NCBI GenBank assembly: GCA_023406895.1 | Contig: JAEXTV010000031.1 | Span: 110,603 to 174,602, forward strand | Direction of reading: 5' to 3' | DNA: 64,000 bases | Source: Bacillota bacterium | GTDB lineage: Bacteria; Bacillota; Clostridia; Christensenellales; SZUA-584 | In this document: one piece after another, positions 21,799-52,948 of the stretch | Numbering within the stretch: position 1 is the stretch's first letter | How the letters are laid out: each line of letters starts with the position of its first letter | Made by a program: the position numbers and the translations under genes | Notes under the pieces: generated by a model | What the model was told of the DNA's origin: nothing | What the model saw: only the letters and a program-made list of their open reading frames with translations | Database searches by the model: none

Positions 21799-22414
21799 TT
21801 CACGTCATCCTTTTTTTCGGTTCTATATAATTTATGCCGTGCTGAAATAAACGTTTCTCACATTAATGTGTGCCTCGCAAGAAAAATAATCTCATTGTAA
21901 TTTTTGTCATTTGGAGCATTGCCTTCGGTGATTAAAAAGATGCTGAGCGCCGATATTCGGGTTGCGTAAAGTGTAAATTACTTCCTTATAAAGGAAGCAT
22001 AGGTGGCAGGTTATTGCCGGATAATGCTTTCACGGCAAGAAAACTGATTTTACCCTGTTTTTCTGTTGGTTTTGACAAATTTACTGTTGACTTTTATGAA
22101 ACAAGGTGTACCATGTAAAATGGCGGAGGATTGGAAATATTATTTTAAATGTTATCTTAGAACTTGATTTTGAGACACTGAGACATAATCAAAAGAAAGC
22201 TTAAAGAGGATCAATCTCATCCACCATTGTTAAATACTATAGCCCGGAACAAGATGTCAATGTTTTGCCCCAGTAGTTTTTTGTATGCATTTTACAGGAG
22301 GTTACAGCATGAACATGATGTTACTTGAGAGTGGATAACGCCACAGTAAGCACCATTAGCACGGCATCTCGTTACCGTTTTACTTACTGATAGAATAACA
22401 AAAAGGAGAATACT

Positions 22415-24496: not shown

Positions 24497-24529
24497 TAAC
24501 AGAATAAATAGTAATCTCATAATCACAGA

Positions 24530-24559
24530 CAGCCGGCTGCATCATGCAGCCGGCTGTTT
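24530..24559 (+). terminator. Terminator hairpin after hppA
   Basis: 12-bp perfect stem CAGCCGGCTGCA / TGCAGCCGGCTG followed by TTT. Confidence 0.65.
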
Positions 24560-24832
24560 GCGTATACGAGCCGCAATACAAGACGATGACTCAATCAGAC
24601 TGCTCCATATGATTCAATGAAAACAAACACCCTTGAGCTGACTGGTGAAGGCATCGCTAAGCGGCAATCGGCCAAGTTATCAAATGGGCTTCATCTGCGG
24701 TGGATAGGCTGCCGCGAAGAGGACGTGATAAACCACGTCGAAAGCAACCATATATTATTATGAGTCGATGAAGACCTGCAGAGGTGGAAATTAAATCATT
24801 TTTATACCCATTCAAGCGCTTTTCTCAAAAAA

Positions 24833-24861
24833 TTGCATGAGCGTGGGCTCTGTGATATGAT
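24833..24861 (+). promoter_or_regulatory. Sigma-A-type promoter of the ABC operon
   Basis: TTGCAT (24833-24838), 17 nt, TATGAT (24856-24861). Confidence 0.55.
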
Positions 24862-24907
24862 GGCAGCATTGGTGGAATCATTTATTACCATTTATAAAGG
24901 AGGGCGT

Positions 24908-25843
24908 ATGGCGCTGCTCGACATTCAGGACTTAAAAAAGTATTTTAAAAACATCAAAGCGGTAGACGGCATATCATTCAGTGTAGAAAAAGGGGATATT
25001 TTCGGGCTGCTGGGCCCGAACGGCGCGGGTAAATCGACAACGATTTCGATGATCGCGACGCTTGCCGCACCCGATAGCGGGACGATTGAATTTAAAGGTG
25101 AGAATATCGCGAAAAGCCCGAGGGCAATACAGCAGTGCCTTGGGCTCGTGCCGCAGGAGATTGCATTGTACCCAAGTCTCTCGGGTATTGAAAATCTGCA
25201 GTTCTGGGGCAGAGCATACGGGCTTTCGGGCGCTAAGCTCAAAAAGCGCATCGATGAGGTGTCTGAAGTGATCGGTATCACCGACAGACTCAAGGACCGC
25301 GTCAAAAAATATTCAGGCGGCATGCAGCGGCGGCTCAACATCGGCGCGGCACTGCTTCACAATCCCGAATTTATCATTATGGACGAACCCACGGTGGGTA
25401 TCGATCCGCAGTCGCGCAACCACATCCTTGATACGGTGAAGGCGCTGGCTGGGCAGGGTGCAACGATCATCTACACGAGCCACTACATGGAAGAGGTGGA
25501 GATGCTCTGCAACCGCGTGTGCATCATGGATGAGGGCAAAATCATCGCGGCGGGCACCAAGGACGAGATCACGTCATCACTTGGCGGCGGGTGCGAATTG
25601 AGCCTGAAGCTTGCCAAGCCTGATGCGGCGCTCTGCGAAAAGCTTGCGGCGCTTCCCGAAGTGAAAAAACTCAGCGCGGAAGACGGCAATGTGTTGATCG
25701 TTGCGGATGATGCTGATAAAGCCACACACGCTCTGCTCGATACGGTGAACAAAAGCCACGCGTCGCTGCTCTCCTTCGACACCAAAAAGCCAAGCCTTGA
25801 GACGGTGTTTTTAAACCTCACAGGCCGCGCCCTGAGGGACTGA
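24908..25843 (+). CDS. ABC transporter ATP-binding protein
   Basis: Start MALLDIQDL with RBS AAAGGAGGG. Walker A GPNGAGKST, signature YSGGMQRR, Walker B FIIMDEPT. Confidence 0.9.
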   Translation: MALLDIQDLKKYFKNIKAVDGISFSVEKGDIFGLLGPNGAGKSTTISMIATLAAPDSGTIEFKGENIAKSPRAIQQCLGLVPQEIALYPSLSGIENLQFWGRAYGLSGAKLKKRIDEVSEVIGITDRLKDRVKKYSGGMQRRLNIGAALLHNPEFIIMDEPTVGIDPQSRNHILDTVKALAGQGATIIYTSHYMEEVEMLCNRVCIMDEGKIIAAGTKDEITSSLGGGCELSLKLAKPDAALCEKLAALPEVKKLSAEDGNVLIVADDADKATHALLDTVNKSHASLLSFDTKKPSLETVFLNLTGRALRD

Positions 25844-25846
25844 GCC

Positions 25847-27133
25847 ATGAGGATGACCGATATTATTGCAAAAGACCTGCGCGTGGTGCTTCGCAACCGC
25901 GTGGCATTGATATTTATATTCCTAATGCCCATTGTGCTGATTACGATATTGAGCTTTGCGCTGGGCGGCATGTTCACATCCGAAGGCGTATCGATTGGGC
26001 ATTTGAACATTGCCGTGGTGGACTTTACAGATGACGATGAAGCGCAGGGGCTGCAGCAGATGGCATCTGCCAACGGCACAGGCGCTTTTGACTCCAAGGC
26101 GATGTCGCTGTATGCCGTGCTTGATTCGAAAGAGGTGGCCGCATTTTTAAGCTACACTGTGGCCGATGAACAGACGGCAAAGCAACAACTCGAAGATGGC
26201 AGTATCGATGCGGTCGTCACAATCCCCAAAGGGTTCACAATGGGCATCATGACGGCGATGACGGGCGGCGGCAGCCATCAGCAAATTGATGTGACGGGCG
26301 CCCAAAACAAAGCGATGCAGTCGGGCATCGTGGCCGGTATTGTCCGCGCGTACACGGATACACTCTCCGCGATGTCGGCAGACATCAAAATACTGATGGA
26401 AACGGCGCTGTCCGGCGGTATCGCGCAAGAGGCGATTGCGCAGCTGGATTTTGCGTCGTTCATGCAGAGCCTCTCGCAGCCCGGCGATATCAACGTGACC
26501 ATGCAGGGCATTGATGCGCGCAAGGCGCTCAGCAGCTTCTCGTACTATTCCATCGCCATTACGTGTATGTTTCTGCTGTATTCGGCGGGGCAGGGCAGCT
26601 CGTTTCTGCTGACGGAGAGTCAGGAGAAAACACTCGTGCGTTTAAGGGCAGCGGGCGTTTCGGTGAAAAAGCTGCTGCTCGGCAAATCCGTCGCGGTATT
26701 TTTCCTCAGCATCATACAGCTCATCGTGCTGCTCGGGTTTTCGACGCTGGCCTTTGGCCTCGACTGGGGCAATCCGCTCGTGTTTATACTCATATCCGTC
26801 TGCGTCGCCGTCTCCATCACGGGGCTCGGCGTGCTGCTGATGGTGCTCGTGTACCGCGCGGGCAATCCGGCTGTGGGCAGTGTGTTCCAAAGCGTGATCG
26901 CGCAGGTACTTGCGTTGTTCGGCGGCAGCTTTCTGCCGCTGGCCGTGCTGCATGCGTTCTTTTCAACCGTCGCGCTGTTCACGCCCAACGGCCTTGCTGT
27001 GATGGCGTATACGGGCAACGTATCGGGCGCGCCGCTGGCTGAGATACTGCCGTACCTCGGCGGCAGCGTGCTGATGGGCATTGTGCTCTATTGTCTGGGG
27101 CTGCTGCTGTTCCCCAAAGAAAGGAGGGCCTGA
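25847..27133 (+). CDS. ABC-2 transporter permease (large extracytoplasmic loop)
   Basis: 428 aa. N-terminal TM, ~200-aa loop, C-terminal 5-6 TM helices. Confidence 0.8.
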   Translation: MRMTDIIAKDLRVVLRNRVALIFIFLMPIVLITILSFALGGMFTSEGVSIGHLNIAVVDFTDDDEAQGLQQMASANGTGAFDSKAMSLYAVLDSKEVAAFLSYTVADEQTAKQQLEDGSIDAVVTIPKGFTMGIMTAMTGGGSHQQIDVTGAQNKAMQSGIVAGIVRAYTDTLSAMSADIKILMETALSGGIAQEAIAQLDFASFMQSLSQPGDINVTMQGIDARKALSSFSYYSIAITCMFLLYSAGQGSSFLLTESQEKTLVRLRAAGVSVKKLLLGKSVAVFFLSIIQLIVLLGFSTLAFGLDWGNPLVFILISVCVAVSITGLGVLLMVLVYRAGNPAVGSVFQSVIAQVLALFGGSFLPLAVLHAFFSTVALFTPNGLAVMAYTGNVSGAPLAEILPYLGGSVLMGIVLYCLGLLLFPKERRA

Positions 27134-27134
27134 T

Positions 27135-28307
27135 ATGTCCGCGATACTTTGGCTCAAATGGAAGCGCATGCGGCAGGATGTGACGATGTACGTGATCATG
27201 ACGTTTATGGCCCTGTTCTTAACGTTCATATTCGGCAACGCGATGTTCGGAGGCGGCGGCGCGCAGCGCGTGTATGTGGCGGATAGCGACGGCTCAGCGC
27301 TCTCCGCCGCGTTAATCGGCGCGTTTGATCCGGACGCGTACGCGCTGGAGGAGATGAGCGAAACGGACGCGCAGGCCGCCGTGGCCAAGGGCGAAGCGCT
27401 CGCGGCAATCGTGATCCCCGAGGGCTTTGAAGACGCCGCGCTCAAAGGCTCGGCAGAGGTGACCGTTCTGCGCACGGCGGACAGCGCCGACATTCTCATG
27501 CTGCAAAGCGCGGTGAATTCGGCATACCGCAATGCTGTGCACGGCTTTAAGCTGCACGGCGCGCTGGCGGATACGCTAAAGCTCGCGAATATTGAAGCGC
27601 CGTCGCTCAGTGAGGTGCAGGCAAGCCTCGCGGCCGCATTGGAAAGCAAACCGGTGACGGTGAATTACACACTGCTCGCGGCGGACGATTACGACGAGAA
27701 GTTCGCGGAAAACATCCATTACATGATGGGCTTTAACATCTTCTTTGTGATGTTCAGCATCGTGTTCACACTCAGCAGCATACTCGAAGATAAAAAGCTG
27801 CATACGTGGAACCGCATCCGCATCTCTCCGCTCTCCACGCGCGCGGTGCTTGCGGGCAACTTTATTCCGGCTTATGCGGTGGGCCTGATCCAAATGGCAA
27901 TCGTGCTGTTTTTCGGGCAGCTGCTGTTTGGCATCAATCTCGGCGCGGCGCTGCTGCCTGTGTTCGCGGTGTTTGCGGTGTTTGTGTTGGCGGCCACGTG
28001 CCTCGGGCTGCTGCTTGCCACCGTGTTTAAAGCGTACGAGCAGATGAACGCGGCGGTGCCCGTGATCATTGTGGGCACGAGCATGCTCGGCGGCTGCATG
28101 TGGCCGCTGTCCATCGTGGGTTCCGATGTGCTGATCGGCATCGCGAAGGGCATGCCGCAATTCTGGGCGCTCGACGCGGCGGAGAACCTCGCGGTGATGG
28201 GGGCGGGCTTTGGCGATATTGTGCTCAACATCGGCGTGCTTTTTGGCATGGCGCTTGTGTTGTTTGCGCTGAGCATGGTAATCTATAACAAAAAGCAGAG
28301 GGCGTGA
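27135..28307 (+). CDS. ABC-2 transporter permease, paralogous second subunit
   Basis: Start MSAILWLKWKR two nt after the preceding stop. Same topology as the upstream permease. Confidence 0.8.
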   Translation: MSAILWLKWKRMRQDVTMYVIMTFMALFLTFIFGNAMFGGGGAQRVYVADSDGSALSAALIGAFDPDAYALEEMSETDAQAAVAKGEALAAIVIPEGFEDAALKGSAEVTVLRTADSADILMLQSAVNSAYRNAVHGFKLHGALADTLKLANIEAPSLSEVQASLAAALESKPVTVNYTLLAADDYDEKFAENIHYMMGFNIFFVMFSIVFTLSSILEDKKLHTWNRIRISPLSTRAVLAGNFIPAYAVGLIQMAIVLFFGQLLFGINLGAALLPVFAVFAVFVLAATCLGLLLATVFKAYEQMNAAVPVIIVGTSMLGGCMWPLSIVGSDVLIGIAKGMPQFWALDAAENLAVMGAGFGDIVLNIGVLFGMALVLFALSMVIYNKKQRA

Positions 28308-28855
28308 TGAGTATGGACGACAGAATTCTTGAAACGGCAAACAAATACTTAAAGCTCGCGCAGGATGTGATGACGTTTGAAGCGGCGGAGCGCATTGACG
28401 GTGAATTGCCGATTGACGTGCAGACCGCGCTTCTTCGCATTTACTACGCGAAAAAGCTCGAAGTGCGGCTGCAAAAGTGCGAAGCGCTGCTGACGGATGA
28501 AACGGCGCAGGACGCGGTGGACGCGCTCGGCGCGGCGATGCAGGCGGTGGATGACGCAACGCTGGCCGCAATGGACTGTATTGAGGACTACAAGCGTGAC
28601 GACAGCAATTTTGAGCGCATGATGGATACCCTCTCAATGAGCACGCCCGCCGAGCGGGTAGAAGGGCAGCTCTTAAAGCTTTACAAGTGCGAGAGCATCA
28701 TCCGCGAGACGTATGAGTTTGCGTCGGCGCATTCGTACATGCTCACGCCGGAGGAATACATCGCCCAGCGCATGGACGTGGACATGGACGCGCTGACCGA
28801 GCTCCGGCAGTCGCTGCTCGATGAGATAAGCAAAATGATGGGGGAGACCGCATAG
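28304..28855 (+). CDS. Hypothetical acidic cytoplasmic protein, co-transcribed with the ABC operon
   Basis: 183-aa ORF overlapping the permease stop. Helical, acidic, no recognised motif. Confidence 0.6.
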   Translation: MMSMDDRILETANKYLKLAQDVMTFEAAERIDGELPIDVQTALLRIYYAKKLEVRLQKCEALLTDETAQDAVDALGAAMQAVDDATLAAMDCIEDYKRDDSNFERMMDTLSMSTPAERVEGQLLKLYKCESIIRETYEFASAHSYMLTPEEYIAQRMDVDMDALTELRQSLLDEISKMMGETA

Positions 28856-28932
28856 CCCAAGGTGATTATATTGCTCAATGAATGTTTCGGTGTCATTCTG
28901 AAGGTGCGTGCTGACGTTACAGCAACACAAAG

Positions 28933-28956
28933 GGCAGCAGGAATGCTGCCTTTTTT
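28933..28956 (+). terminator. Rho-independent terminator
   Basis: GGCAGCA-GGAA-TGCTGCC followed by TTTTTT. Confidence 0.8.
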
Positions 28957-29049
28957 ATGTCGCATAGGAGTGCGCAAATGCAGAAAAACGTCAGACTTGC
29001 ATCGGAAATCCACCAATGATACTATATAACAAAAACGGAGATTTTCACC

Positions 29050-29508
29050 ATGGAGAACCGACTTAAAGGCTGCGCCGGCGTCAAAATTCTTATTGTTACA
29101 CTTATCTATTTGTTCGCGGCACTGATCGTTGATCAAAAGCTTGCGCCCATGTTTCGCATCGTACCCGACAAAAGCATTCTTTTAAACGCGCTCGGTATCA
29201 TAATTCTCACGCTTGGGCTTTTTGCCGATTTTGCCGCTTTGTCCGCCATGCGACGCGCGCGCGATGAGGGCAGGCTCGCGACAACAGGGCTGTACCGTAT
29301 TGTTCACGATCCGATGTACATGTCGCAGATCTTTCTCATTCTGCCCGGCGCCATGCTGATTGTGAATTCGTGGCTCGGGCTGACCACAATGATCCCGGCT
29401 TACTTGGCGTATAAGGTTTTCACGCGTAAGGAACACCGGGTGCTGAGGGAGACATTCGGGCAGGCCTACACAGAGTACGAGAAAACGATACTGATTCCGT
29501 TTTTGTAA
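29050..29508 (+). CDS. Isoprenylcysteine carboxyl methyltransferase (ICMT/PEMT) family membrane protein
   Basis: 152 aa, 4 TM helices. Motif TTGLYRIVHDPMY and C-terminal E...FG..Y..Y. Confidence 0.75.
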   Translation: MENRLKGCAGVKILIVTLIYLFAALIVDQKLAPMFRIVPDKSILLNALGIIILTLGLFADFAALSAMRRARDEGRLATTGLYRIVHDPMYMSQIFLILPGAMLIVNSWLGLTTMIPAYLAYKVFTRKEHRVLRETFGQAYTEYEKTILIPFL

Positions 29509-29530
29509 AGCGATTTTATAGATTTTTGCA

Positions 29531-29860
29531 AACACAAAGGGCAGCAGAAATATTGTCTGCTCTCCATCAACTCATCGTGTCACTCTGAACGAGCGAAGCA
29601 AAGTGAAGAATCTGTTGACGTAGCAGCTTTTATCAGAACAGAGTCTTAGTCCGTCACAGCCTTCCTCATAATGACCGGAATAGTGCTTCTTTGAAAACAC
29701 AAAGGGCAGCAGAGATATTGTCTGCTCTCCATCAACTCATCGTGTCATTCTGAACGAGCGAAGCGAAGTGAAGAATCTGTTGACGTAGCAGTCTTTATCA
29801 GAACAGAGCCATCGTCCGGCTAGAAACCGTCTTCAGAATGACGGGACTAGTCAGTTTCTC
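29531..29860 (+). repeat. Direct duplication, two copies with ~165-bp period
   Basis: AACACAAAGGGCAGCAGA.ATATTGTCTGCTCTCCATCAACTCATCGTGTCA.TCTGAACGAGCGAAGC.AAGTGAAGAATCTGTTGACGTAGCAG at 29531 and 29696. The first ~110 bp are near-identical, then the copies diverge. Confidence 0.85.
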
Positions 29861-29930
29861 TTTTTAATGAAAAGCGCCGAATTCCGAGAACCGGCGCTTT
29901 TGTTATGCCATGAGCCATGTTAAATGTCAA

Positions 29931-30557
29931 TCAGCATATGAAAACCTGATCTCGCCTGACGCCAAAGGATTCGATAAAGGCTTCGGCATCGCGCAGGCTA
30001 AAGAACGGGCCCGCCACAAATCTGCATCCAGGGCTAATGGATAATGGCTGATCCCCAAAAGCGACTGTATATTGGCAATAGTTGATGCCCTCCGCCGCGC
30101 TGAAAAATCTGCAAAGATAAACGTTGAGCGGGCGACGCGGCTGCGGTACCGGCACGGGTACGGGTATCGGACGTGGCCGTGGACGTGGCCGTGGTGGAGG
30201 CATCGGCGGCCTTGGACGCGGCGGTCTCGGCCCCGGCATGGGTGGCCTTGGTCCCGGCATGGGAGGTCTCGGCCCCGGCATGGGTGGCCTCGGCCCCGGC
30301 GTCGGCGGTCTCGGCCCCGGCATGGGTGGCCTCGGTCCCGGCATCGGCGGTCTCGGCCCCGGCATGGGAGGTCTCGGCCCCGGCATCGGTGGTCTTGGCC
30401 CCGACATAGGCGGTCTTGGGCGCGGCATGGGGGTCGGTATCGGCGGCACCACTGGTTGTTCCGGCAGCCCCGGCATCATCGGCTGCATCGGGGGCGGTGT
30501 CTCGCGTTGTGCGATATACGGGTTATAAAAATAGTCTTCGTCATCATACGGGTTCAT
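29931..30557 (-). CDS. Proline-rich repeat protein with a Cys-containing C-terminal domain, function unknown
   Basis: 208 aa. About ten tandem (P)GPRPPM(P) heptads. RBS GGAGGT 7 nt upstream of the ATG. C-terminal ~65 aa non-repetitive. Confidence 0.7.
   Translation of the reverse strand: MNPYDDEDYFYNPYIAQRETPPPMQPMMPGLPEQPVVPPIPTPMPRPRPPMSGPRPPMPGPRPPMPGPRPPMPGPRPPMPGPRPPTPGPRPPMPGPRPPMPGPRPPMPGPRPPRPRPPMPPPRPRPRPRPIPVPVPVPQPRRPLNVYLCRFFSAAEGINYCQYTVAFGDQPLSISPGCRFVAGPFFSLRDAEAFIESFGVRRDQVFIC
30200..30425. repeat. 21-bp tandem coding repeat, ~10 units
   Basis: GGCCCCGGCATGGG(T/A)GG(C/T)CT(C/T) units alternating with ..ATCGGCGGTCTC variants. The differences are largely synonymous proline codons on the minus strand. 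Confidence 0.85.
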
Positions 30558-30804
30558 TATTTACCTCCAAAACAAGTTGGACAGTCTTTATTCATTAGCG
30601 CTACAACGCGGGCAGTTTGCTATGTTTATAGCGCTGATGAAGTTGTATTCGTCAATTCACGCGGATTAAAGGTTTATAAAATCCGGCTGGTATTATTGTA
30701 TGCGCGGCGGGTGAAACCTGTAACAGAGCATACATGGATGAAGGGTGAGGCAGCAAGGAAGTACGTGGGAATGCTGTCTTTCTTGTGGTGAATGAGGGGG
30801 TAAA

Positions 30805-30833
30805 TTGAAATATTGTGTAAGATTTGATACAAT
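30805..30833 (+). promoter_or_regulatory. Sigma-A-type promoter at the left edge of the AT-rich islet
   Basis: TTGAAA (30805-30810), 17 nt, TACAAT (30828-30833). Confidence 0.6.
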
Positions 30834-30880
30834 AACTTATTGAAAGTAATCGTAGTATTTAAATTGCTGAGGAGAACTAA

Positions 30881-31468
30881 TTGGATACTTTGAATTTTGC
30901 TATTAATATAAAGACACCTTCTATAATCAATAATAGAATTTTAAAATTCTGCGATAGAATTGATACTCTTAATAAGCCACAATACATCAAGTGTTTAGAA
31001 TATAGAAGTGGTGAGGCAGGGAAATGCTTTGACAATGTAAGAAGATATATCTTGGAATTTGGGGGAGAGATGATCGTTGGGTGGAATATTTGGATTTATA
31101 AAAATATCTTTATTCAAGCTGAATCACATGCTGTAGTAGAAACATCTAAGCTTGGTCTTGTCGATGTATCACCACAAAAGGAAAATAGGGTGTTATTCCT
31201 TAAAGATAGTGGTCTTCAAAATTTAGAAAATCCCATTAAAAGTAGATTTGAAGTACTTACAGATTCAGAATATTCTAAGCAATTTGTTAATCTGTTAGAC
31301 AGTATTGATGAGAAACGTTCCATAAGTGAGGAAGGTTTTTATTTATCACAAGAAGAATTATATCTATATCAATTCCTAATTAAAAAGTTTTCAGAAATTC
31401 GTAAAGGTCATGAATTCTGTCCTTGTGAATCTGGTCTAAAATTTAAGAGCTGTTGTGGTAGAAAATAA
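30881..31468 (+). CDS. SEC-C motif protein, N-terminal domain unknown
   Basis: 195 aa. TTG start with RBS GAGGAG 6 nt upstream. C-terminal CPCESGLKFKSCCGRK is a SEC-C metal-binding motif. AT-rich codon usage unlike the flanks. Confidence 0.75.
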   Translation: MDTLNFAINIKTPSIINNRILKFCDRIDTLNKPQYIKCLEYRSGEAGKCFDNVRRYILEFGGEMIVGWNIWIYKNIFIQAESHAVVETSKLGLVDVSPQKENRVLFLKDSGLQNLENPIKSRFEVLTDSEYSKQFVNLLDSIDEKRSISEEGFYLSQEELYLYQFLIKKFSEIRKGHEFCPCESGLKFKSCCGRK

Positions 31469-31506
31469 TGATGAGAACTTACGATAAATTTATTTGAGGT
31501 AATTTT

Positions 31507-32778
31507 ATGAAAATTTCATTTGAATTTTGGTTAAATGAAAAAAATCTAAGCGCTAACACTAAAGAGTTATTTAATGAAGCAATAATCTGCTACAAAGCTG
31601 GAGCAAATAGAGCAGCTTTGCTCTTTTCATATATTGCTTTTATAGAATTAATTAAAAATCGTTTGCTTGAAGCCAACAAACCCGATGAAGTAACCCAAGG
31701 AGAATGGGATAATAAAAGGAAGAAACTGCTTGATGATTTTGAAGTCGATAAAGAGATTTTTGATATTTTAAATAGAACTGATAACAAGTATTTTAAATTG
31801 AACGACTCATTACGAAATCAAATAAAATACTGGAAGGACAGGAGAAATGATTGCGCTCATTTAAAGCTTAATAAAATCGACAGTGCACATGTGGAAACCT
31901 TTTGGAACTTCATTATGAGTAATATAAATAGGTTTTCTATAGTTGGAAGTCAAAATGATTTTATAAACAGGATTTTAAGGCATTATGACGAAGACAGCAC
32001 ACCAATTGGGAGTGATTTCTCTTCAATTGTTCTTGATATTCCTCAATCAGTCGATTTAAGTAACTTTTCGGCTTTTTTATTAGAATTAGAAGAAATTCTA
32101 TTGAAAGTAGAAGAAGAGCAATGGTTATATTATACTTATGAATATGCAGGTTTTTTTTATAGTATGTTAACGAAGCTTGAAGAGAGTTATAGTGAAATAG
32201 TAAAGAATTTTGTTCTTAGTAATAGTAAAATTTCTACAGAATTATTCGGATATAAACCTGAGTTTTTGATTTATTTCAAGAATGAAAATGCTGAGTATAT
32301 TAGACAACTATGGAAAAAAAGTGATAGCGTAACTGCAAAGCAAGCATGTGTACTATTGAGAAATACCATAGTACCTGCGAATCAAATAGATGAGTTAATT
32401 GAAGATTGTATTTATAAGAACAAAAACCATATTCCAAAAGTTGAAGAGCTAGAATTTTTAATCCCGTATGGATATGTAAAACGATTAAATTATATAATTG
32501 AGAAAGCGCTATCTGAAGGCAAGGCATTTGAATGGTGGCTAAAAGATAATAACAAGTTTATGAAGTTTTATATTAAATATAATTTTACAATAAAGAAAAG
32601 CGATATTATTGATATGTTTCTGAAAAATGTAACATACATTCCTGAAGGTGAACAAACTAGAGTGCTTTTTTCGTTATTTTCTGGTATTATAAGAGAGAAT
32701 GATGAATTTCTTGCTTATACTAAACAAAGGGCTGTTAGTCTAGGTGTTGATTTAGATAAATTACTAATGATATTTTAA
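31507..32778 (+). CDS. Protein with N-terminal HEPN-like domain (RRNDCAH), C-terminal region unknown
   Basis: 423 aa. Helical N-terminus with an Rx4H / RNxxAH-type motif at aa 112-118 (nt 31840-31860). AT-rich. Confidence 0.7.
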   Translation: MKISFEFWLNEKNLSANTKELFNEAIICYKAGANRAALLFSYIAFIELIKNRLLEANKPDEVTQGEWDNKRKKLLDDFEVDKEIFDILNRTDNKYFKLNDSLRNQIKYWKDRRNDCAHLKLNKIDSAHVETFWNFIMSNINRFSIVGSQNDFINRILRHYDEDSTPIGSDFSSIVLDIPQSVDLSNFSAFLLELEEILLKVEEEQWLYYTYEYAGFFYSMLTKLEESYSEIVKNFVLSNSKISTELFGYKPEFLIYFKNENAEYIRQLWKKSDSVTAKQACVLLRNTIVPANQIDELIEDCIYKNKNHIPKVEELEFLIPYGYVKRLNYIIEKALSEGKAFEWWLKDNNKFMKFYIKYNFTIKKSDIIDMFLKNVTYIPEGEQTRVLFSLFSGIIRENDEFLAYTKQRAVSLGVDLDKLLMIF

Positions 32779-32855
32779 AGCATATTATTATTGCCCCCTT
32801 TACAACTTATGATGCTACAATCAAATGTAGCTTTTCAAATGGAAACGGACTTAAG

Positions 32856-32883
32856 GCTGCGCCGCATAAAACGCAGCTTTTTT
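32856..32883 (+). terminator. Rho-independent terminator closing the AT-rich islet
   Basis: GCTGCG / CGCAGC stem followed by TTTTTT (32878-32883). Confidence 0.7.
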
Positions 32884-33012
32884 AATGCTTCGGGGGGTAG
32901 CGCTCGATCAAAGTTTTCTCATCCCTATCCTTTCCCATATTCCTCCTTGCACCTATCCTCCCCGCAATGCTATAATCTTTTATCGAAAAATCCACACGCA
33001 AGGAGTCCTTTC

Positions 33013-35169
33013 ATGATCAGCATCGCCAGCCAAATCGCCAAGGAACTCGGTATCAGGGAAGAGCAGGCCAAAAGCGCCATCGCGCTTATCGACGAAGGCA
33101 ACACCGTCCCGTTCATCGCGCGCTACCGCAAAGAAGTCACCGGTTCTTTAACCGACGAACAGCTGCGCGACCTTGCCGACCGCCTCGCCTACCTTCGCAA
33201 GCTCGAAGAGCGCAAGGAAGAGGTGATTCGCCTCATCGACGAGCAGGGGAAGCTGACCGACGAACTCCGCGCCAAAATCAACGCCGCGCAGGGCGTCACC
33301 GAGGTGGACGATATCTACCGCCCGTACCGCCCCAAACGCCGCACACGCGCCACCATTGCCAAGGAAAAGGGCCTTGAGCCGCTGGCGGACCTCATCTGGC
33401 AGCAGCAGACGAGCGACGATGCTGTATTACAAAAGGCTCAAGAATACATCAATGAAGAAAAAGACGTGGCATCCGCCGACGACGCGGTGGCGGGCGCGCT
33501 CGATATCATTGCGGAAATGATCTCCGACGATGCCGATCTGCGCGGCAAGCTGCGCGCTTATCTGCGCCGCAGCGGCGACGCGATCTCCAAAACACAGACG
33601 AGCGAAAGCACCGTCTACGATATGTACTACGATTTTAAAGAACCCATCTCAAAGCTCGTGCCGCACCGCGTGCTCGCATTGAACCGCGGCGAGAAGGAAA
33701 AGATACTCAATGTGAAAATCGAGGCAGAGGAGCAGGACGCCGTATCGCTGATGCACCGCGTCATATTCCAGCCGCGCTGGCAGAGCGCTTATCTGCAGTC
33801 GGCCATTGAAGACGCGTATAAACGGCTCATATTCCCGTCCATCGAGCGCGAGATAAGAAACGAGCTGACCGAAACCGCCGAGGAGCAGGCGATACGGGTG
33901 TTTGGCGAGAACCTCAAAAACCTGCTGCTTCAGCCGCCCGTCCACGGCAAAACGGTGCTCGGGCTCGATCCCGGCTTTCGCACGGGCAACAAGGTGGCCG
34001 TGGTGGATGCCACGGGCAAGGTGCTCGAAACGGGCGTCGTTTACATGACGCTCGAGCATCACGACACCGCCAAAGCCAAGGATTATTTGAGAAGGCTCAT
34101 CGAAAAGCACAACGTCGATATCATCGCGATCGGCAACGGCACCGCCAGCAAGGAGACCGAAGCCGTGGTTGCGGAACTCATCAAAACGCTGCCGAAGCAA
34201 ATATACTATCTTGTGGTCAGCGAAGCGGGTGCGTCGGTGTATTCGGCGTCGGCGCTCGGCACCGAGGAATTCCCCGAGTTCGATGTCGCGCTGCGCAGCG
34301 CGGTGTCCATCGCGCGGCGATTGCAGGACCCGCTCGCGGAGCTCGTGAAGATTGACCCGAAGGCCATCGGCGTCGGTCAGTACCAGCACGATGTGAACCA
34401 AAAGCGCCTCGCGGAGATGCTCGGCGGTGTGGTGGAAGACTGCGTGAACGCGGTCGGCGTCGATCTCAATACGGCGTCGCCGTCGCTGCTCAAGTACATT
34501 TCGGGCATATCGCCCGCCGTGGCAAAAAACATCGTGGAGATGCGCGAGACGACCGGCCAGTTCAAAAGCCGTGCGCAGCTCAAAAAGGTGAAGGGGCTCG
34601 GCGGCAAGGCGTTCGAGCAGTGCGCGGGCTTCCTGCGCATACCGGGCGCGGCCAACATCCTCGATACCACGGCGATTCACCCCGAATCGTACGACGCGGT
34701 GACGCGCCTGTTTGAAAAGCAGGGCGTGCAGGTGAAGCAGGAGAAGGACTTGGAGCCGCTGCGCGCGCAGATCGGCGCGTGGAACGTGAACGCGCTGGCA
34801 GACGTGCTCGGCATCGGTGTGCCCACGCTCAAGGATATCTTAGAGGAGCTCAAAAAACCGGGCCGCGACCCGCGTGACGCGTTTGAGCAGCCCGTGTTTC
34901 GCTCCGACGTGATGCACCTTGAGGATTTGAAAGAGGGCATGGTTTTAACGGGCACCGTGCGTAACGTGATCGATTTTGGCGCGTTTGTGGATATCGGCGT
35001 GCATCAGGACGGCCTCGTGCACATCAGCCAGCTTGCCGATAAGTTCGTCAAGCACCCGATGGACGTGGTGAAAACGGGTGACATCGTCAAGGTGCGCGTG
35101 CTGAGCGTGGACGTGAATAAAAAGCGCATCGCGCTCACAATGAAAAACATAGGCAATACATTGAACTGA
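33013..35169 (+). CDS. tex: Tex-like transcription accessory protein (S1 RNA-binding domain)
   Basis: Start MISIASQIAKELGI..VPFIARYRKE. YqgF/RuvX-like, HhH and C-terminal S1 domain pattern. RBS AAGGAG. ORF-track start 32791 rejected. Confidence 0.93.
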   Translation: MISIASQIAKELGIREEQAKSAIALIDEGNTVPFIARYRKEVTGSLTDEQLRDLADRLAYLRKLEERKEEVIRLIDEQGKLTDELRAKINAAQGVTEVDDIYRPYRPKRRTRATIAKEKGLEPLADLIWQQQTSDDAVLQKAQEYINEEKDVASADDAVAGALDIIAEMISDDADLRGKLRAYLRRSGDAISKTQTSESTVYDMYYDFKEPISKLVPHRVLALNRGEKEKILNVKIEAEEQDAVSLMHRVIFQPRWQSAYLQSAIEDAYKRLIFPSIEREIRNELTETAEEQAIRVFGENLKNLLLQPPVHGKTVLGLDPGFRTGNKVAVVDATGKVLETGVVYMTLEHHDTAKAKDYLRRLIEKHNVDIIAIGNGTASKETEAVVAELIKTLPKQIYYLVVSEAGASVYSASALGTEEFPEFDVALRSAVSIARRLQDPLAELVKIDPKAIGVGQYQHDVNQKRLAEMLGGVVEDCVNAVGVDLNTASPSLLKYISGISPAVAKNIVEMRETTGQFKSRAQLKKVKGLGGKAFEQCAGFLRIPGAANILDTTAIHPESYDAVTRLFEKQGVQVKQEKDLEPLRAQIGAWNVNALADVLGIGVPTLKDILEELKKPGRDPRDAFEQPVFRSDVMHLEDLKEGMVLTGTVRNVIDFGAFVDIGVHQDGLVHISQLADKFVKHPMDVVKTGDIVKVRVLSVDVNKKRIALTMKNIGNTLN

Positions 35170-35177
35170 GGATAGAT

Positions 35178-35852
35178 ATGAAGCTCGCGGTGTTCGATTT
35201 CGACGGCACGCTGTTCCCGAAGGACACGCTGCCGTTCCTCTTAAAACAGTGGAACAAGCAGCACATGGGGCGGCGGCGCTTCATCGGCACGTGCGCCTCG
35301 GTGGGCGGTCTGTTCGTGCGCTACAAGCTCGGGCTTTACGATGGGGACGCGCGCGAATACGTGCGCCGCAAGGCGATGGACCGTTTTGCGCCGATATTCC
35401 GCCTCATGAAGACGGAGGATGTGGACGCGTTCTTTGAGCGCTGCGCGAGGCTGATACTGCCGCAGCTCAACGCCGACGTGGTGAACGAGATAAAAATAAC
35501 AAAGCAGCAGGGCTTTCACACCGTGCTGCTTTCGGGCGGTTTTCAGCGGCTCATGGAGTATGTCGGCTTATCGCTCGGCTTCGATACGGTGATCGGCACG
35601 GCGCTGCACTATAAGAACGGGCGCGTGGATGTGTCTCAGCCGCTCGACATCGTCTGCGGTGACGACAAGGCGACGCATCTTCGCGGCACATTCAACGCTG
35701 CGGATGTGGATTGGCAGGGGAGCACCGCGTATGCAGACAGCCTTTCGGACCTATCGATATTGCAGCTCGTTGGCACGCCTGTCGCGGTAAACCCCGAGCC
35801 GGAGCTCAAAGCTCACGCCGAGGCGGCGGGCTGGCGCATTATCACCCGCTAG
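35178..35852 (+). CDS. HAD-IB family hydrolase (SerB-like phosphatase)
   Basis: DFDGTL motif I at the N-terminus and a YADSxSD motif near the C-terminus. Confidence 0.8.
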   Translation: MKLAVFDFDGTLFPKDTLPFLLKQWNKQHMGRRRFIGTCASVGGLFVRYKLGLYDGDAREYVRRKAMDRFAPIFRLMKTEDVDAFFERCARLILPQLNADVVNEIKITKQQGFHTVLLSGGFQRLMEYVGLSLGFDTVIGTALHYKNGRVDVSQPLDIVCGDDKATHLRGTFNAADVDWQGSTAYADSLSDLSILQLVGTPVAVNPEPELKAHAEAAGWRIITR

Positions 35853-47291: not shown

Positions 47292-47367
47292 CTTGATCCT
47301 TTCGGTGTGTATTAGAAAAATAGAGAAAGAGTGCAGCACTCTTTCTCATATGTTCTCACTGCAAATT

Positions 47368-47670
47368 TTAGCGGATAAGGCTGACCGGTGCGAGACAGGC
47401 GGTGCAGGCCAGCACCAAAATAACCGAGAAAGCCAACGCGACAATATTGAGCACAAGACCCGCTGTGGCCATGCCGGTCAGATTCTGCTTTCTCGCCGAG
47501 ATGCTCAGCACAAGGCCGACAACGCCGAGAATGATTGAAATGAACCAAAGAAACCAGAAGAAGATGGCGAAGAAAACCGCGCATATGCCAAGGACCATAC
47601 CCGCTATGGCCATTCCGTTTTGATTCGCAGGCGGAGTGGGCTGAGTATTCTGAGTGTTCTGCTCTTCCAT
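47368..47670 (-). CDS. Small membrane protein, DUF4190-like
   Basis: 100 aa. Gln/Thr/Pro-rich N-terminus followed by two or three TM helices. Confidence 0.65.
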   Translation of the reverse strand: MEEQNTQNTQPTPPANQNGMAIAGMVLGICAVFFAIFFWFLWFISIILGVVGLVLSISARKQNLTGMATAGLVLNIVALAFSVILVLACTACLAPVSLIR

Positions 47671-47789: not shown

Positions 47790-49415
47790 TCATTCCGCAG
47801 ACTGTTGGCTGGCAAATGTGATGCCCAGCTGATTTGAAACATCATCAATAAGCAGATCCCCTCTGTAAGAAAAAACAATTCTTTGGCCTTCGTTGCCAAT
47901 AATGAAATCACCGTTTGGTTCTATCTTGACGGGAATACCCAGCTGCAGGCACAAGCGGTAGACGCTTCCCGCAGTCATTAAGCCTTGATCAACACGCACG
48001 TCGGAGAAAGTTTGCGGTTCGCCATCAATCAGTACAGTCACAGCCGCACCATATGACAGTTTGTACTGTAAGGCTTTTTCGTCTTTCCATGGCGTATAAT
48101 CACTGGTAAAAACATCAAGCATGTGCCGGAGCATCTTCAGCGCTGAGGCCTCGCTGGAAAGCCAGTCGTTATCAGTCAGCACGGGTCGCGGGATACCATT
48201 GGGGAAAGGGTATGGAGAATCAGGGGGAAGCACCCCGAAATAAAGGTCTGCGCCGCGAGCAAAAGGATATGTTTCAAGGTAGTCTTCGGGGATCGACGGA
48301 AGTATGGAGGCCAGTGTCTTTAACTCCTCATCATTTGCGACAGGCAGATATATGGTGCCATAGCACATGTCGTAAGCGCCGTCCACACCTGACGACCGAA
48401 GCGTTTCTTCAAACGCAGATTCTAAAAGATTATCTCTCATCAAATCAGCGGTATCGAGTATGGCATAAACCTTAAATTCCAGATCACCATAATCGGGAAG
48501 GCTGCATGTGTAAATGTGTCCCGTATCTGCCTGCTCATACTTTTCAGAAACTTCGATGGTTAAATCCGGGTACTTGTCGCCTAAATAAAGCTGTACGGCA
48601 TCCGGGCCGGTAACAACTTGAACAATGGGGATGGATTCAGGTGTCGGCTGCGGAAAATATTTAGTGCCATTTTGCCCGTTGAGCAGCAAGATAACGCAAA
48701 GAACAAGCACCAATGCGATTGGAGAAACCCCAAGGGTAATATTCAGCTTGCGGTTAGGATGCCGTGCCCTTGACCGCGCTTTAAGCGTGGTGAGCAGCCG
48801 GGCCAATTGACGGTAGGGAGGACGATTGGGATCTCGATTCTTTTTTGCGAAATATGCCCGCCGGATGGCATCGTAAACCACGGGATGGATCGTGTAAAAA
48901 TCTTTGTATAAAAGCTTGGTCAATTCATCGATGAATTCCGGTGAATCCATGACATGCTGAAAGTCTTCACTGTTGAGAAAAGTATACCATACGCTTTTCT
49001 GGGAGTTGCCATTGGAAAGCAGCTTGTATGCATTGTTCAGGACGGAGATAAAAAGAAGTTGTTCTTTGCGTTCAAGATACTGCAAGCTTTCGGCAGGAAA
49101 AGCTTCAAAATCATATCTGTCTTGTTCCGCTTGAGTCTGGTCGTTCTCGGGCAAGCTTTTTTGGGTAAAATCAAAACTGACGGGTTTTTCCGGCGCAGGG
49201 GAGGAAGGGCCTAACACAGGTTGGTCGATGTCAGCCGCCCGTTGGGGCTGCGACGATGAGGCCATAGCCAACGCCTTGCGATAGGCTTCGTTGAGCCTCT
49301 GAAACTCCTGCGGATGCTCTTCGGGGTGAAATTGTCTTATTTTTTGAGCATAGGCTTTGCGAATTGTATCCGCGTCTGAATTGGCTTCGATACCAAGCAT
49401 GTACCACACATTCAT
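47790..49415 (-). CDS. Membrane-anchored J-domain protein (DjlB/DjlC-like co-chaperone candidate)
   Basis: N-terminal J-domain pattern (WYMLGIEANSDADTIRKAYAQKIRQFHPEEHPQEFQRLNEAYRKAL) with HPE in place of HPD. Central TM helix (GVSPIALVLVLCVILLL). ~300-aa C-terminal domain of unknown fold. Confidence 0.8.
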   Translation of the reverse strand: MNVWYMLGIEANSDADTIRKAYAQKIRQFHPEEHPQEFQRLNEAYRKALAMASSSQPQRAADIDQPVLGPSSPAPEKPVSFDFTQKSLPENDQTQAEQDRYDFEAFPAESLQYLERKEQLLFISVLNNAYKLLSNGNSQKSVWYTFLNSEDFQHVMDSPEFIDELTKLLYKDFYTIHPVVYDAIRRAYFAKKNRDPNRPPYRQLARLLTTLKARSRARHPNRKLNITLGVSPIALVLVLCVILLLNGQNGTKYFPQPTPESIPIVQVVTGPDAVQLYLGDKYPDLTIEVSEKYEQADTGHIYTCSLPDYGDLEFKVYAILDTADLMRDNLLESAFEETLRSSGVDGAYDMCYGTIYLPVANDEELKTLASILPSIPEDYLETYPFARGADLYFGVLPPDSPYPFPNGIPRPVLTDNDWLSSEASALKMLRHMLDVFTSDYTPWKDEKALQYKLSYGAAVTVLIDGEPQTFSDVRVDQGLMTAGSVYRLCLQLGIPVKIEPNGDFIIGNEGQRIVFSYRGDLLIDDVSNQLGITFASQQSAE

Positions 49416-49438
49416 AGCAGCATCTCTTCCTGACTTTG

Positions 49439-51030
49439 TTAATTTTCTGATATAATCGTGATGCCCAAAGCCTGTGCAGCCTCGCCGATGTCAGCCGTCC
49501 CCTCCTCGGAGCATACGATAAAACTTTCATGATTATAAAAATTCAGCTTGTTGTCTTTGGCTAGGAAAGGTATATCAAGATGTTTACAGAGCCTGTAAAT
49601 ATCCCCAGCCGATATCACACCGTTCTCTGCCCGGACATCCTCGAATGTTTGCGTGACATCATTCGCTTGCACGGTCACGGGCTGCCCATAGCTTAGATAA
49701 ACGTTGCTGTTTTCTTGTGATAACGCAAGATTGGCCCATGGTTCATATCTGATCGTGTACTCTGTGCGCATGTCTTTAAACAGCTTGAGCATACCTTCTC
49801 TGTCGCGAGGCCGGTTGTGCCCGTCATACAGTTCGTATGCTGTGATCTTGGCGAAAGGAAATATAACTTGCTGCGGCAGAACGGTGATTTTTATATTGAA
49901 CTCGCGAACAAACGGATACAAATTTGAGCACTTTTCCGGAAGAGCCATTAAAGAGTCGGACATTTCTTCAAGGTACGCGTCGCTATTATAATAATAGTAC
50001 GCAACGTCTGAACAGTTGTTTCGGGGAATAAACAGATCAGAAGCGTATTCAACAGCCGTTTCCGCTAGGTTATCCTTAATTGACGACAAATCAAAAGGCG
50101 GGCTTGCATAGGCTTTAAACACCAAATTGTTGTATTCGGGCAGCGTACACTCAAAAGTATGAACTGAATCGTCTTCTATTAAGGATTCAAATACCTTGAT
50201 ATCGATATCGGGATATTCATTTTTGATATATGTTTCAACGTTTTCCAGTATGGTGCTGTTCAGTATGCTGTCAGCCACAGAAACGATCTTGTTGCTATTA
50301 TTATTTTTGGCCAAGTAAGCAAGCCCAAGAGAAGCCAATATTGAAATCAAGATAATCAGCCAAATATGCTTTGCAATAAATGACACACAAACGAATAAAT
50401 ATCTTTTTAAGCCAAGCTGTTCTTTGAGTATTTGCGCAAGCTGTCTGTACGGGGGGAGATTAGGATTACGGTGGTTGTCTTTGAAATATTGCCGCCTAAC
50501 CATTTTGTATATAGCGGGGTTGAAATCATGACGATGTTTTCTTAGCAGCTCGGTAAATTCGCCGATGAATACCGGTTCATCCATCACTTTAATAAAACGT
50601 TCGCTATTAAAAAAAGCGTGCCATACATCGAGGCGAGCTTCGCCAATCGTAATAAATACCTGGATCTTCTTAAGAATATCTGCTGGGGTCAGGTATTCGG
50701 ACCCTTTAGGTGCAGGTTTGGTCTTGAATTCATCGTAGTCAAAGTTATCACCTTTGGGTGTTTTATTTTCTGTTGTTGCGTCTTCCGGGGAGCGGCCGAA
50801 TTCATATTCGGCGGTTTGAGGCTCGTAGATATCCGTTTCCGGTATGTTGTCATCAAATAAGACCGTTTGCTGGACGGTGTCAGCAATGGCCTGCCTGTAT
50901 CGTTGAGCTGTTTAAACTCTTCAGGGTGTTCTTCGGGGTGGAATTGCTTAATTTTTGCGGCATATGCTTTGCGGATACTATTGGCATTTGAACCTCTGGG
51001 GATGCCCAGTAGACGCCAAGGGTCTTTCAT
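49439..51030 (-). pseudogene. Frameshifted paralogue of the membrane J-domain protein
   Basis: J-domain ORF (51030-50689) and the 382-aa ORF (50587-49439) are colinear with the 541-aa paralogue. Frames join at ~50898-50902, where ..FKQLND|YRQAIADTVQQ.. continues open in the -1 frame with no stop. Confidence 0.75.
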
Positions 51031-52769
51031 TTATCGTCTCCATCATTATCAAAGCGAAATAACACCGAGTTTTGATCGCTCATACCGGTGGTGAACTGGT
51101 CAAGAAATTCAATAAACTTAGCACGCATTTTTTTAATAGCCAAACGCTCCTGTTTTTCGAGTATCCCCATAAATACTTCGTAGTTGTGCATAATGGTTTC
51201 GCGCAATGAACCTGTCGTTTCTTCAAAAAGCCGTTCCGCTCGCGCCAAAACCAGTTTGTTCTCGTCCTCATCACGAGGATGAATTTTAAGCTTGGCAAGC
51301 TCGCTGATCCGCTTCTCAACCTCATAATCGGTCAATGAGCTGCCTTTGCTGATAATAACCAGCCGTTCCCTCTGCTGAGAGGAAACGTTGACCGCATCCA
51401 CCTCGAGTATGCCGTTAATATCATAAGTAAAACGCACATCAATACTTTCCTGGCCGCGAGGCGCAGGCGTAACTGACATATTGATTTCACCAAGAAGAAC
51501 ATTGTCTTCCGTGTACATGGATTCCCCTTGATAAACCCCCACTCTGATGTCCTTTTGCCAGTCTCCCGCCGTACAAAAACGGCTTTCCTTGCTTGTCGGC
51601 AGCGCGCTGTTGCGCTCAATAAGCACTGACATGAGTGAGCGATGGGGCTGAATTCGGTTGTGCACGTTGATACCTAGAGAGAACGGGCATATGTCTGTCA
51701 GCAAGAAGTCCTTGATTTCGCTGCAGCGTTCCTTTATGCCCACGAAGACGCCGAGCCCAAGAGCAACGGATGTGTCGGGCGACCCGTACTCACAGGTTTT
51801 GATGCCGCAAATATGCTCAAGATATTGCTTGACGATAGGCATATGGCAAGAACCGCCCACGAGAATTATGCTATGAATATCCTCTTTACCAAGACCGCTG
51901 TCCTTAAGCGCGTGCCGTACAGGCTGCTCGATGCGTCTAAACAGCGCTGAGGAAATTTCGATGAGTTTTTGATTGCCGATAATGATGCTGCCGGTGATCT
52001 CTTGATTAACCACCTTCATTTCCGTCGAGTTCTTTTTTGACAGCTCAATTTTGCACAGCTCCGCCTGCCGCAGCAATATAGCTCGCCCGGTCTCGGAAAG
52101 ATCCTTGAATTGAATACCGTTTTGCTGGCAAAAGTATTGTGCCATCACCTCGTCAAAATCACTGCCGCCCAAATGATTATCGCCGCAAACGGCCAGAATA
52201 CTGACGATGTTTTCAAAGCATTCGACAACGGAGACATCAAGAGTTCCGCCGCCGAAGTCAAACACGATATAGTTGCGATAAGCTGTCGGATCACCGCCGG
52301 CCATATAGCTGGCAAGTGCAGCGGCTGATGGTTCATTCACCAGTCTTTCCACATGAAGCCCTGCGAGTTTTCCCGCGCGCTTTGTTGCGCTGCGTTGATA
52401 ATCATTAAAATAAGCGGGCACGCTGATGATAGCCTCAGTAACGGGTTCCCCTGTAAAACGCTCCGCGTCTTCACGCAGCTGCCGAAGAACAAGCGCGGAC
52501 AGCTCTTCGGGCAGGTAAGCTTGTTTTCCCAGATGAAATTCGGTGCCGCTCCCCATTTGCCGCTTAAAAAGTGCCGCTGTCAATTCAGGATGAGAGATCA
52601 GGCGTTCTTTTGCGATCTTGCCAATATACAAAGTGCCGTTCTCATCAATGCTGACAACGCTCGGTGTTAAAAATTCGGAAAAACTATTCGGAACCAATTC
52701 ACTTTTGCCGTTGCGCCAAATGGCGCACAGGCTGTTGGTGGTTCCAAGATCAATACCTATTACTGCCAT
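51027..52769 (-). CDS. Hsp70-family chaperone, non-DnaK (HscC-like)
   Basis: Start MAVIGIDLGTTNS (RBS GGGAGGG). Actin-fold ATPase motifs (DLGTTNS, VPAYFND.QR, DFGGGTLDVS, ILVGGS). ~580 aa. Stop overlaps the start of the J-domain gene (ATGA). Confidence 0.9.
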   Translation of the reverse strand: MAVIGIDLGTTNSLCAIWRNGKSELVPNSFSEFLTPSVVSIDENGTLYIGKIAKERLISHPELTAALFKRQMGSGTEFHLGKQAYLPEELSALVLRQLREDAERFTGEPVTEAIISVPAYFNDYQRSATKRAGKLAGLHVERLVNEPSAAALASYMAGGDPTAYRNYIVFDFGGGTLDVSVVECFENIVSILAVCGDNHLGGSDFDEVMAQYFCQQNGIQFKDLSETGRAILLRQAELCKIELSKKNSTEMKVVNQEITGSIIIGNQKLIEISSALFRRIEQPVRHALKDSGLGKEDIHSIILVGGSCHMPIVKQYLEHICGIKTCEYGSPDTSVALGLGVFVGIKERCSEIKDFLLTDICPFSLGINVHNRIQPHRSLMSVLIERNSALPTSKESRFCTAGDWQKDIRVGVYQGESMYTEDNVLLGEINMSVTPAPRGQESIDVRFTYDINGILEVDAVNVSSQQRERLVIISKGSSLTDYEVEKRISELAKLKIHPRDEDENKLVLARAERLFEETTGSLRETIMHNYEVFMGILEKQERLAIKKMRAKFIEFLDQFTTGMSDQNSVLFRFDNDGDDK

Positions 52770-52948
52770 AAGCCCTCCCAATGACACCACTTTATACATA
52801 ATAAACCATAAATATATACATTTCAACAATAACGGTATACTTTGTATGAAGCTGCTACGGATTATCATTGATTTAAGGTTTATTTTGGGTTGAAAGCATG
52901 ATATACTTTACCAGTTAATTATCATTATGAATAAGGAGCTGAAGTGCT

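Follow-up and report, generated by a model that had tools for sequence, protein, structure and literature searches.

The 64,000-nucleotide stretch of DNA analysed here (the window; assembly GCA_023406895.1, contig JAEXTV010000031.1, positions 110,603 to 174,602, Bacillota bacterium) carries three consecutive minus-strand genes coding for an Hsp70-family ATPase and two J-domain proteins, in the order Hsp70, J1, J2 and at the positions given by a first-pass annotation made from the sequence alone. This locus likely represents a specialised Hsp70 system of the HscC class with dedicated membrane J-proteins, of which J2 would be the working partner and J1 a redundant paralogue, broken in this genome and by separate events in two other lineages. 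The features of the locus are as follows (the coordinates of the Hsp70 and J2 genes include the stop codon).

52798 to 52826, minus strand: promoter-like site TTGAAA-17-TATTAT, a pattern match only (10/12 in a consensus scan).
51027 to 52769, minus strand: Hsp70 of HscC type, 580 amino acids, starting with MAVIGIDLGT at 52769.
50689 to 51030, minus strand: 5' fragment of J1, coding for a J-domain with QFHPEEHP and then out-of-frame sequence up to a stop codon.
50896 to 50905, minus strand: site of the J1 frameshift, at about 50900, located by DNA alignment, where the window has AACGA joined directly to TACAGG.
49439 to 50911, minus strand: remainder of J1 in the shifted frame, which is open from 50911 to 49439, coding for the linker, the helical cytoplasmic segment, the membrane helix and a C-terminal domain of about 290 amino acids.
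47790 to 49415, minus strand: J2, an intact J-domain membrane protein of 541 amino acids.
49254 to 49415, minus strand: J-domain of J2 (residues 1-54, Pfam DnaJ), with HPE at residues 30-32.
48762 to 49094, minus strand: predicted cytoplasmic helical segment of J2 (residues ~108-218).
48663 to 48749, minus strand: single predicted membrane helix of J2 (residues ~223-251).
47808 to 48608, minus strand: predicted extracytoplasmic orphan domain of J2 (residues ~270-536), with an alpha/beta fold.

The length of about 580 amino acids and the translational coupling that had been proposed for the Hsp70 gene were both confirmed. Indeed, the open reading frame occupies positions 51027-52769 and its stop codon overlaps the start codon of J1 in the ATGA at 51027-51030. 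The Hsp70 start codon is preceded by a ribosome-binding site, GGGAGGG, 5 nucleotides upstream, and by the TTGAAA-17-TATTAT site about 30 nucleotides to its 5' side. J2 has a ribosome-binding site of its own, AGGAAGAG.

Judged by its sequence, the Hsp70 is of the HscC type. It can be aligned end to end with HscC of Escherichia coli (39% identity over 553 residues). Its Pfam HSP70 score is 405 bits, its score against the NCBIfam DnaK equivalog is 403.7 bits for a cut-off of 822.55, and it also lies well under the NCBIfam HscA cut-off. It conserves the ATP-binding motifs, the hydrophobic linker between the domains and the arginine equivalent to R167 of DnaK, the residue with which the aspartate of HPD is known to pair. 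A maximum-likelihood tree was computed to place the protein relative to DnaK, HscA and HscC, as the first-pass annotation had advised; the window clade and many homologues from Bacillota group in it with E. coli HscC (support 92/92) and are separated from DnaK and HscA (97/95).

The described hallmarks of HscC are a length of 550-580 amino acids, a deleted GrpE-signature loop and an insertion of 4-8 amino acids in loop L1,2 of the beta subdomain of the substrate-binding domain (PMC8215388), together with a deletion of ~9 amino acids in lid helix B and an acidic/aliphatic C-terminal tail (PMC8215388, Mayer 2021). All of them are present in the aligned window protein, as (i) its length is 580 amino acids (556 in E. 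coli HscC), (ii) 6 amino acids are deleted in the GrpE-signature loop, at DnaK positions ~283-290, as in E. coli HscC, (iii) 6 amino acids are inserted in loop L1,2 (4 in E. coli HscC), (iv) 11 amino acids are deleted in lid helix B, again as in E. coli HscC, and (v) the C-terminal tail is acidic (RFDNDGDDK), that of E. coli HscC being short (AIEIP). A KIHPRD/KIYPRD motif, which is not among the hallmarks of PMC8215388, is also common to both proteins in the alignment.

The gene context points in the same direction. No grpE or dnaJ gene lies near the Hsp70 gene, as had been noted from the sequence; the only canonical grpE of the genome is on another contig (C29), beside dnaK in a canonical grpE-dnaK-dnaJ operon whose Hsp70 scores 733.8 bits. 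The window Hsp70 is therefore not a canonical DnaK, either by the NCBIfam cut-off or by its operon, and it shows the arrangement of HscC, with a dedicated HPE-type J gene adjoining and no linked GrpE gene. The resemblance to E. coli hscC and its djlB/djlC neighbours, which the first-pass annotation had put forward, is thus upheld by sequence identity, by shared insertions and deletions, by the tree and by gene linkage. HscC is among the least understood bacterial Hsp70s.

Both J1 and J2 match Pfam DnaJ and carry QFHPEEHP, that is, HPE in place of the usual HPD, in a short N-terminal J-domain of the DjlB/DjlC kind. HPE is fixed in all members of the window J family. The first-pass annotation had read the motif correctly in both paralogues but was mistaken in treating it as a departure from the E. 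coli model, since DjlB and DjlC themselves read HPE. Indeed, DjlB of E. coli MG1655 reads SFHPETDPQGF and DjlC reads LCHPETDPQGF, in J-domains that are respectively 47% and 41% identical to that of J2. According to the literature, HPE is the only tolerated replacement of HPD and is found in DjlB and DjlC, the partners of HscC, while changes to HPD in DnaJ-type proteins generally abolish function (PMC13254874); HPE occurs in ~1% of J-domains, DjlB and DjlC being among the examples (PMC10410713). The replacement of HPD by HPE is thus already on record and adds no new knowledge.

Among the 17 J-proteins adjoining HscC-type genes in the Clostridia data, 13 have HPE, four have NPE and none has HPD. 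The other four J-domains of the genome have HPD and a longer loop; that of J2 has a short loop between HPE and helix III, and its helices are predicted by AlphaFold2 (AF2) at residues 15-28 and 35-54. HPE is thus the signature of the DjlB/DjlC class, in which it is the functional, co-evolved form of the motif. The four NPE motifs (e.g. VHNPEDD, IYNPEDD, INPEDE) belong to HscC-linked J-domains of loci L043, L044, L047 and L052, in which the otherwise invariant histidine of HPD is shifted or absent; if functional, these partners would be more unusual than those with HPE.

The J-proteins are probably bitopic and of type II, each with the J-domain and a helical segment in the cytoplasm, one membrane helix and a folded domain of ~290 amino acids outside. 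In the AF2 model of full-length J2, the J-domain is followed by a disordered acidic linker (residues 55-116) and then by the all-helical segment (pLDDT, the predicted local distance difference test, of 61-82), which carries the motif W..F..S..F...M(D/N)xPxFIxE. This segment showed no homology to DjlB or DjlC with hhalign; the W..F / DPxFI motif also occurs in the partner J-proteins of three other loci (L028, L029 and L058). The membrane helix reaches a Kyte-Doolittle 19-residue mean of 2.84, and the AF2 model contains a low-confidence helix at residues 234-245 within this stretch. Six lysine or arginine residues are found in the 15 residues before the helix versus one after it, and this charge bias therefore predicts that the N-terminus with the J-domain is inside and that the C-terminal domain is outside. 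The membrane helix and the unassignable extracytoplasmic domain of ~300 amino acids announced by the first-pass annotation are thereby supported, by prediction, in J2 (helix at ~223-251, followed by ~290 residues).

The outside domain is confidently predicted to fold. Its pLDDT is mostly 80-95 in the full-length model, and the domain modelled alone by AF2 reaches a pLDDT of 89.7 and a predicted template modelling score of 0.84. It has no match in Pfam or NCBIfam. A word-based search of 5.8 billion proteins returned four close clusters only, and a scan of genome contigs for homologues returned one locus. An exhaustive profile search with a hidden Markov model against 1.84 billion representatives retrieved the domain's own family and one further protein, P0132 of locus L058, with a marginal E-value (3.7e-4). 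P0132 consists of an HPE J-domain, the W..F/DPxF motif, membrane helices (apparently an odd number of them ahead of the outside domain) and the outside domain, and its gene directly follows an HscC-type gene whose product is 52% identical to the window Hsp70; because of this same build and of the HscC-type gene directly before it, P0132 was accepted as a true distant relative. Foldseek searches of the PDB with the full-length and domain-only models, and of BFVD with the domain model, yielded no fold match (best E-value ~0.1), the TM-scores of the domain normalised to the query being at most 0.18 in both databases.

The system that most resembles the locus is that of E. coli HscC (YbeW), DjlB (YbeS) and DjlC (YbeV). 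Both have an Hsp70 of the same subfamily without a linked GrpE gene, two paralogous J genes near the Hsp70 gene and membrane-anchored J-proteins with short HPE J-domains, for which hhalign gives a probability of 98% over 55 columns. However, the membrane helix of DjlB (residues 446-475 of 475) and of DjlC (457-483 of 483) is C-terminal, whereas that of J2 lies at residues 223-251 of 541; J2 is not tail-anchored, and the window J-proteins have ~290 residues outside according to prediction. No homology to DjlB or DjlC was found beyond the 55-residue J-domain, the hhalign match being confined to columns 1-55 and BLASTP returning nothing further, while DjlB and DjlC are ~50% identical to each other throughout. 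The gene arrangement differs as well, since hscC is divergent from djlC in E. coli whereas the window genes are co-directional and translationally coupled, and the window locus has no counterpart of the Sel1 and DUF1266 genes that adjoin the E. coli ones. In E. coli MG1655 (positions 674000-686000, locus L023), djlB and djlC each stand directly after a DUF1266 gene (ybeR and ybeU) and near the Sel1-repeat genes ybeQ and ybeT.

Other pairs from Clostridia and Bacillota (L026, L028, L029, L041-L056 and L058) resemble the window genes in having an Hsp70 40-57% identical to that of the window, with a J gene directly downstream and HPE or NPE in its product. At least one membrane helix is predicted by hydropathy in every partner J-protein checked (13 complete sequences and the window family). 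The rule that HscC is accompanied by a membrane-anchored HPE or NPE J-protein, never with HPD, thus holds in the Clostridia survey, while the mode of anchoring differs between partners, some being tail-anchored, others multi-pass, and others bitopic with a large domain outside. Unlike the window J-proteins, the majority of these partners have a tail anchor or several membrane passes, their tails being no longer than 20 amino acids; those of L043, L046, L048, L052 and L055 are tail-anchored like DjlB and DjlC. Sizeable tails follow the last helix in L028 (206 amino acids), L056 (129) and L058 (292), the last being the sole other locus in which the outside domain itself was, weakly, matched.

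E. coli DjlA is also a bitopic J-protein, and it recruits an Hsp70 to the cytoplasmic side of the membrane, as is proposed here for the window J-proteins. However, DjlA has an N-terminal helix, a C-terminal J-domain with HPD, DnaK as its partner and no large outside domain, and the match of the window J-protein to the NCBIfam DjlA model is insignificant (E-value 0.052). What is possibly new in the window is a J-protein with a membrane helix in mid-protein and an orphan outside domain of ~290 amino acids. The remaining interest of the locus lies in this rare bitopic variant of an HscC partner with a well-folded orphan domain, and in the recurrent inactivation of its paralogue.

Both paralogous J genes code for recognisable J-domains, as had been claimed, but J1 is frameshifted in the window and not intact. 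The frame of its J-domain, read from 51030 down to 50689, hits a stop codon after 113 amino acids, and the remainder (49439 to 50911) is colinear with the intact 531-amino-acid J1 of sister strains. The site was compared with eight metagenome or genome contigs that carry the same operon at 97.6-97.9% DNA identity: the window reads AACGATACAGG where all eight read AACGAAGCTTACAGG, so that four nucleotides, AGCT, are missing in the window. J1 is intact (531 amino acids) in six of the eight contigs; in the two others (L016 and L018) two nucleotides are missing farther downstream, which splits J1 into 366 and 169 amino acids. In a more distant species (L057, Hsp70 89% identical), J1 has a 143-nucleotide internal deletion and J2 is intact (545 amino acids). 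Three different lesions of J1 (4, 2 and 143 nucleotides) are thus on record. Since the four-nucleotide gap lies outside any homopolymer and other lineages have lesions of their own, it is plausible that the gap in this assembly is a real mutation. The missing AGCT is the exact core of a palindrome, AAGCTT, which all the related contigs carry.

J2, or the single J gene where there is only one, is intact in every contig examined. Relative to a sister strain, the ratio of nonsynonymous to synonymous substitution rates (dN/dS) is 0.08 for Hsp70, 0.31 for J1 and 0.40 for J2.

HscC-type genes (survey threshold E <= 1e-120) are present in 14 of 399 genomes of the class and in 11 of 217 genera; the window J family is limited to a handful of species within a single genus. 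Co-occurrence of the three genes across the Clostridia had been suggested as a check: within the genus, Hsp70 and J genes are found together in exactly 3 of the 23 genomes. In G024 and G032 (the latter corresponding to locus L007), which represent two other species of the genus, the Hsp70 gene is accompanied by one J gene only. The flanks of the module are constant, with a HAD hydrolase gene on one side, followed outwards by mutY, msrAB and xth, and on the other a gene for a small membrane protein, followed by lgt and pdaA. One genome, G025, has a clean empty site, where ~200 bp separate the HAD gene from that of the small membrane protein. In the closest relative, G031 (HAD 95% identical), the module is deleted together with the small gene and some 120 codons at the start of lgt; on its contig C45 (locus L038, 7145-7728) the truncated lgt was left beside the HAD hydrolase gene, by a real deletion or by an artefact of assembly of a metagenome-assembled genome.

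The guanine-cytosine (GC) content of the module is 0.42-0.48 and that of its flanks 0.52-0.58. Between species that have the module at the same site, identity is 76-81% for HAD, 82-83% for mutY and 76-82% for Hsp70; the flanks have thus diverged about as much as the module, which therefore indicates long vertical retention. The distribution is consistent with a gain long ago in one subclade and several later losses.

In the preferred reading, that of an HscC-class system with J2 as its working partner, a cytoplasmic HscC-type Hsp70 would be co-transcribed with its dedicated J co-chaperones, to the first of which it is translationally coupled. The J-protein would most likely recruit the Hsp70 to the cytoplasmic side of the membrane, where it would trigger ATP hydrolysis; such recruitment has also been proposed for the tail-anchored DjlB and DjlC. 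The outside domain, as modelled, could set the location of the complex or determine which membrane or envelope partner it meets. E. coli DjlC has been reported to stimulate HscC (Kluck 2002, as cited in PMC8215388). If the biochemistry of E. coli HscC and DjlC applies here, the J-domain would stimulate the window Hsp70 specifically and a nucleotide exchange factor would not be needed, and the Hsp70 has neither a linked GrpE gene nor the GrpE-contact loop. The Clostridia survey supports the view that HscC acts at the membrane, and a folded outside domain could serve as a handle for finding its targets.

Several points weigh against this reading. The tree contains a single proteobacterial HscC, that of E. 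coli, on a long branch. That the module can be dispensed with is shown by its scattered distribution and by the repeated loss of J1. Expression, stimulation of the ATPase, membrane insertion and topology all rest on sequence and prediction. Since there is no homology to DjlB or DjlC past the J-domain, function should not be transferred from them beyond it. Finally, the role of HscC is itself barely known, its E. coli phenotypes being limited to sensitivity to Cd2+ and UV (PMC8215388).

A possible, though not likely, refinement of the preferred reading is that the J-proteins work as outside-in sensors, the outside domain detecting the state of the envelope or cell wall, or a ligand, and switching the recruitment of HscC by the J-domain; this corresponds to the envelope-sensing system suggested by the first-pass annotation. 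In its favour are the size of the outside domain, its conservation and its confidently predicted fold, as well as a conserved helical segment close to the membrane, between the J-domain and the membrane helix; the tails of the L028, L056 and L058 partners are also sizeable. However, profile and structure searches revealed no recognisable ligand-binding or sensor fold in the domain, the module encodes no signalling partner, and most partners of the class, being tail-anchored or multi-pass, have almost nothing outside, so that sensing is not a general role of the class. In a related and unlikely proposal, the J-proteins would act as adaptors across the membrane, linking the recruitment of the Hsp70 to a cue or partner outside the cytoplasm, and the inactivation of J1 and the higher dN/dS of the J-proteins might reflect selection at the surface (e.g. 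by phage or host factors) and not simple redundancy. If true, a bacterium with a single membrane would have an Hsp70 system controlled from beyond that membrane.

It is decidedly doubtful that the module is a horizontally gained accessory in decay, without an important function here. Its low GC content, its presence in few genomes of the genus, the empty site of G025, the deletion in G031 and the three different J1 lesions would all suit such a history, but Hsp70 is under strong purifying selection, as its dN/dS indicates, J2 is intact in all contigs examined, and the shared site between similarly diverged flanks indicates long vertical retention.

It is very improbable that the module serves in anti-phage defence or another conflict, with an Hsp70-like ATPase at its base. 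The sporadic distribution, the low GC content, an orphan domain predicted to be surface-exposed and a dN/dS higher in the J-proteins than in Hsp70 could be read in this way; however, none of the three proteins has a PADLOC match, no integrase, transposase or defence gene is found nearby, the flanks being housekeeping and spore-cortex genes whose order is kept in relatives, and the Hsp70 has the full length of an HscC, substrate-binding domain included. Lastly, that HPE is a strain-specific error or marks a dead J-like domain can practically be dismissed, because the loss of function generally caused by HPD changes in DnaJ-type proteins (PMC13254874) is outweighed by the fixation of HPE in the family, by HPE or NPE in 17 of 17 HscC-linked partners, by HPE in DjlB and DjlC and by the reported stimulation of HscC by DjlC.

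Next to the module, one further gene was considered.

47368 to 47670, minus strand: 100-amino-acid membrane protein with a faint Pfam DUF4190 match, outside the module.

This gene lies between J2 and lgt, and the N-terminus of its product is rich in Q, N, T and P. It was rejected as a member of the operon, as it is kept in relatives with or without the module and stands beside lgt in G025 without Hsp70 or J genes. No terminator-like hairpin was detected in the spacer between J2 and this gene, and one is found near it at 47323-47347; the gene may be co-transcribed with J2 here. A link of the module to the neighbouring spore-cortex genes (pdaA, gerQ-like and cwlJ/sleB-like) was likewise rejected, because the same neighbours occur in the same order where the module is absent.

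Elsewhere in the same genome, contig C24 (~22300-35800; locus L014, 4295-17831, minus strand) encodes four tandem proteins in which the nucleotide-binding domain is the only part of Hsp70 present. Their C-terminal modules all differ: one has a zinc ribbon, one WG repeats, one none, and one Sel1 and RCC1 repeats. The cluster further includes two GTPases of the dynamin family, a YbjN-like gene and a second GrpE-like gene, and is reminiscent of the 'DnaK derivates', which have been termed chaperone dark matter (PMC13580251).

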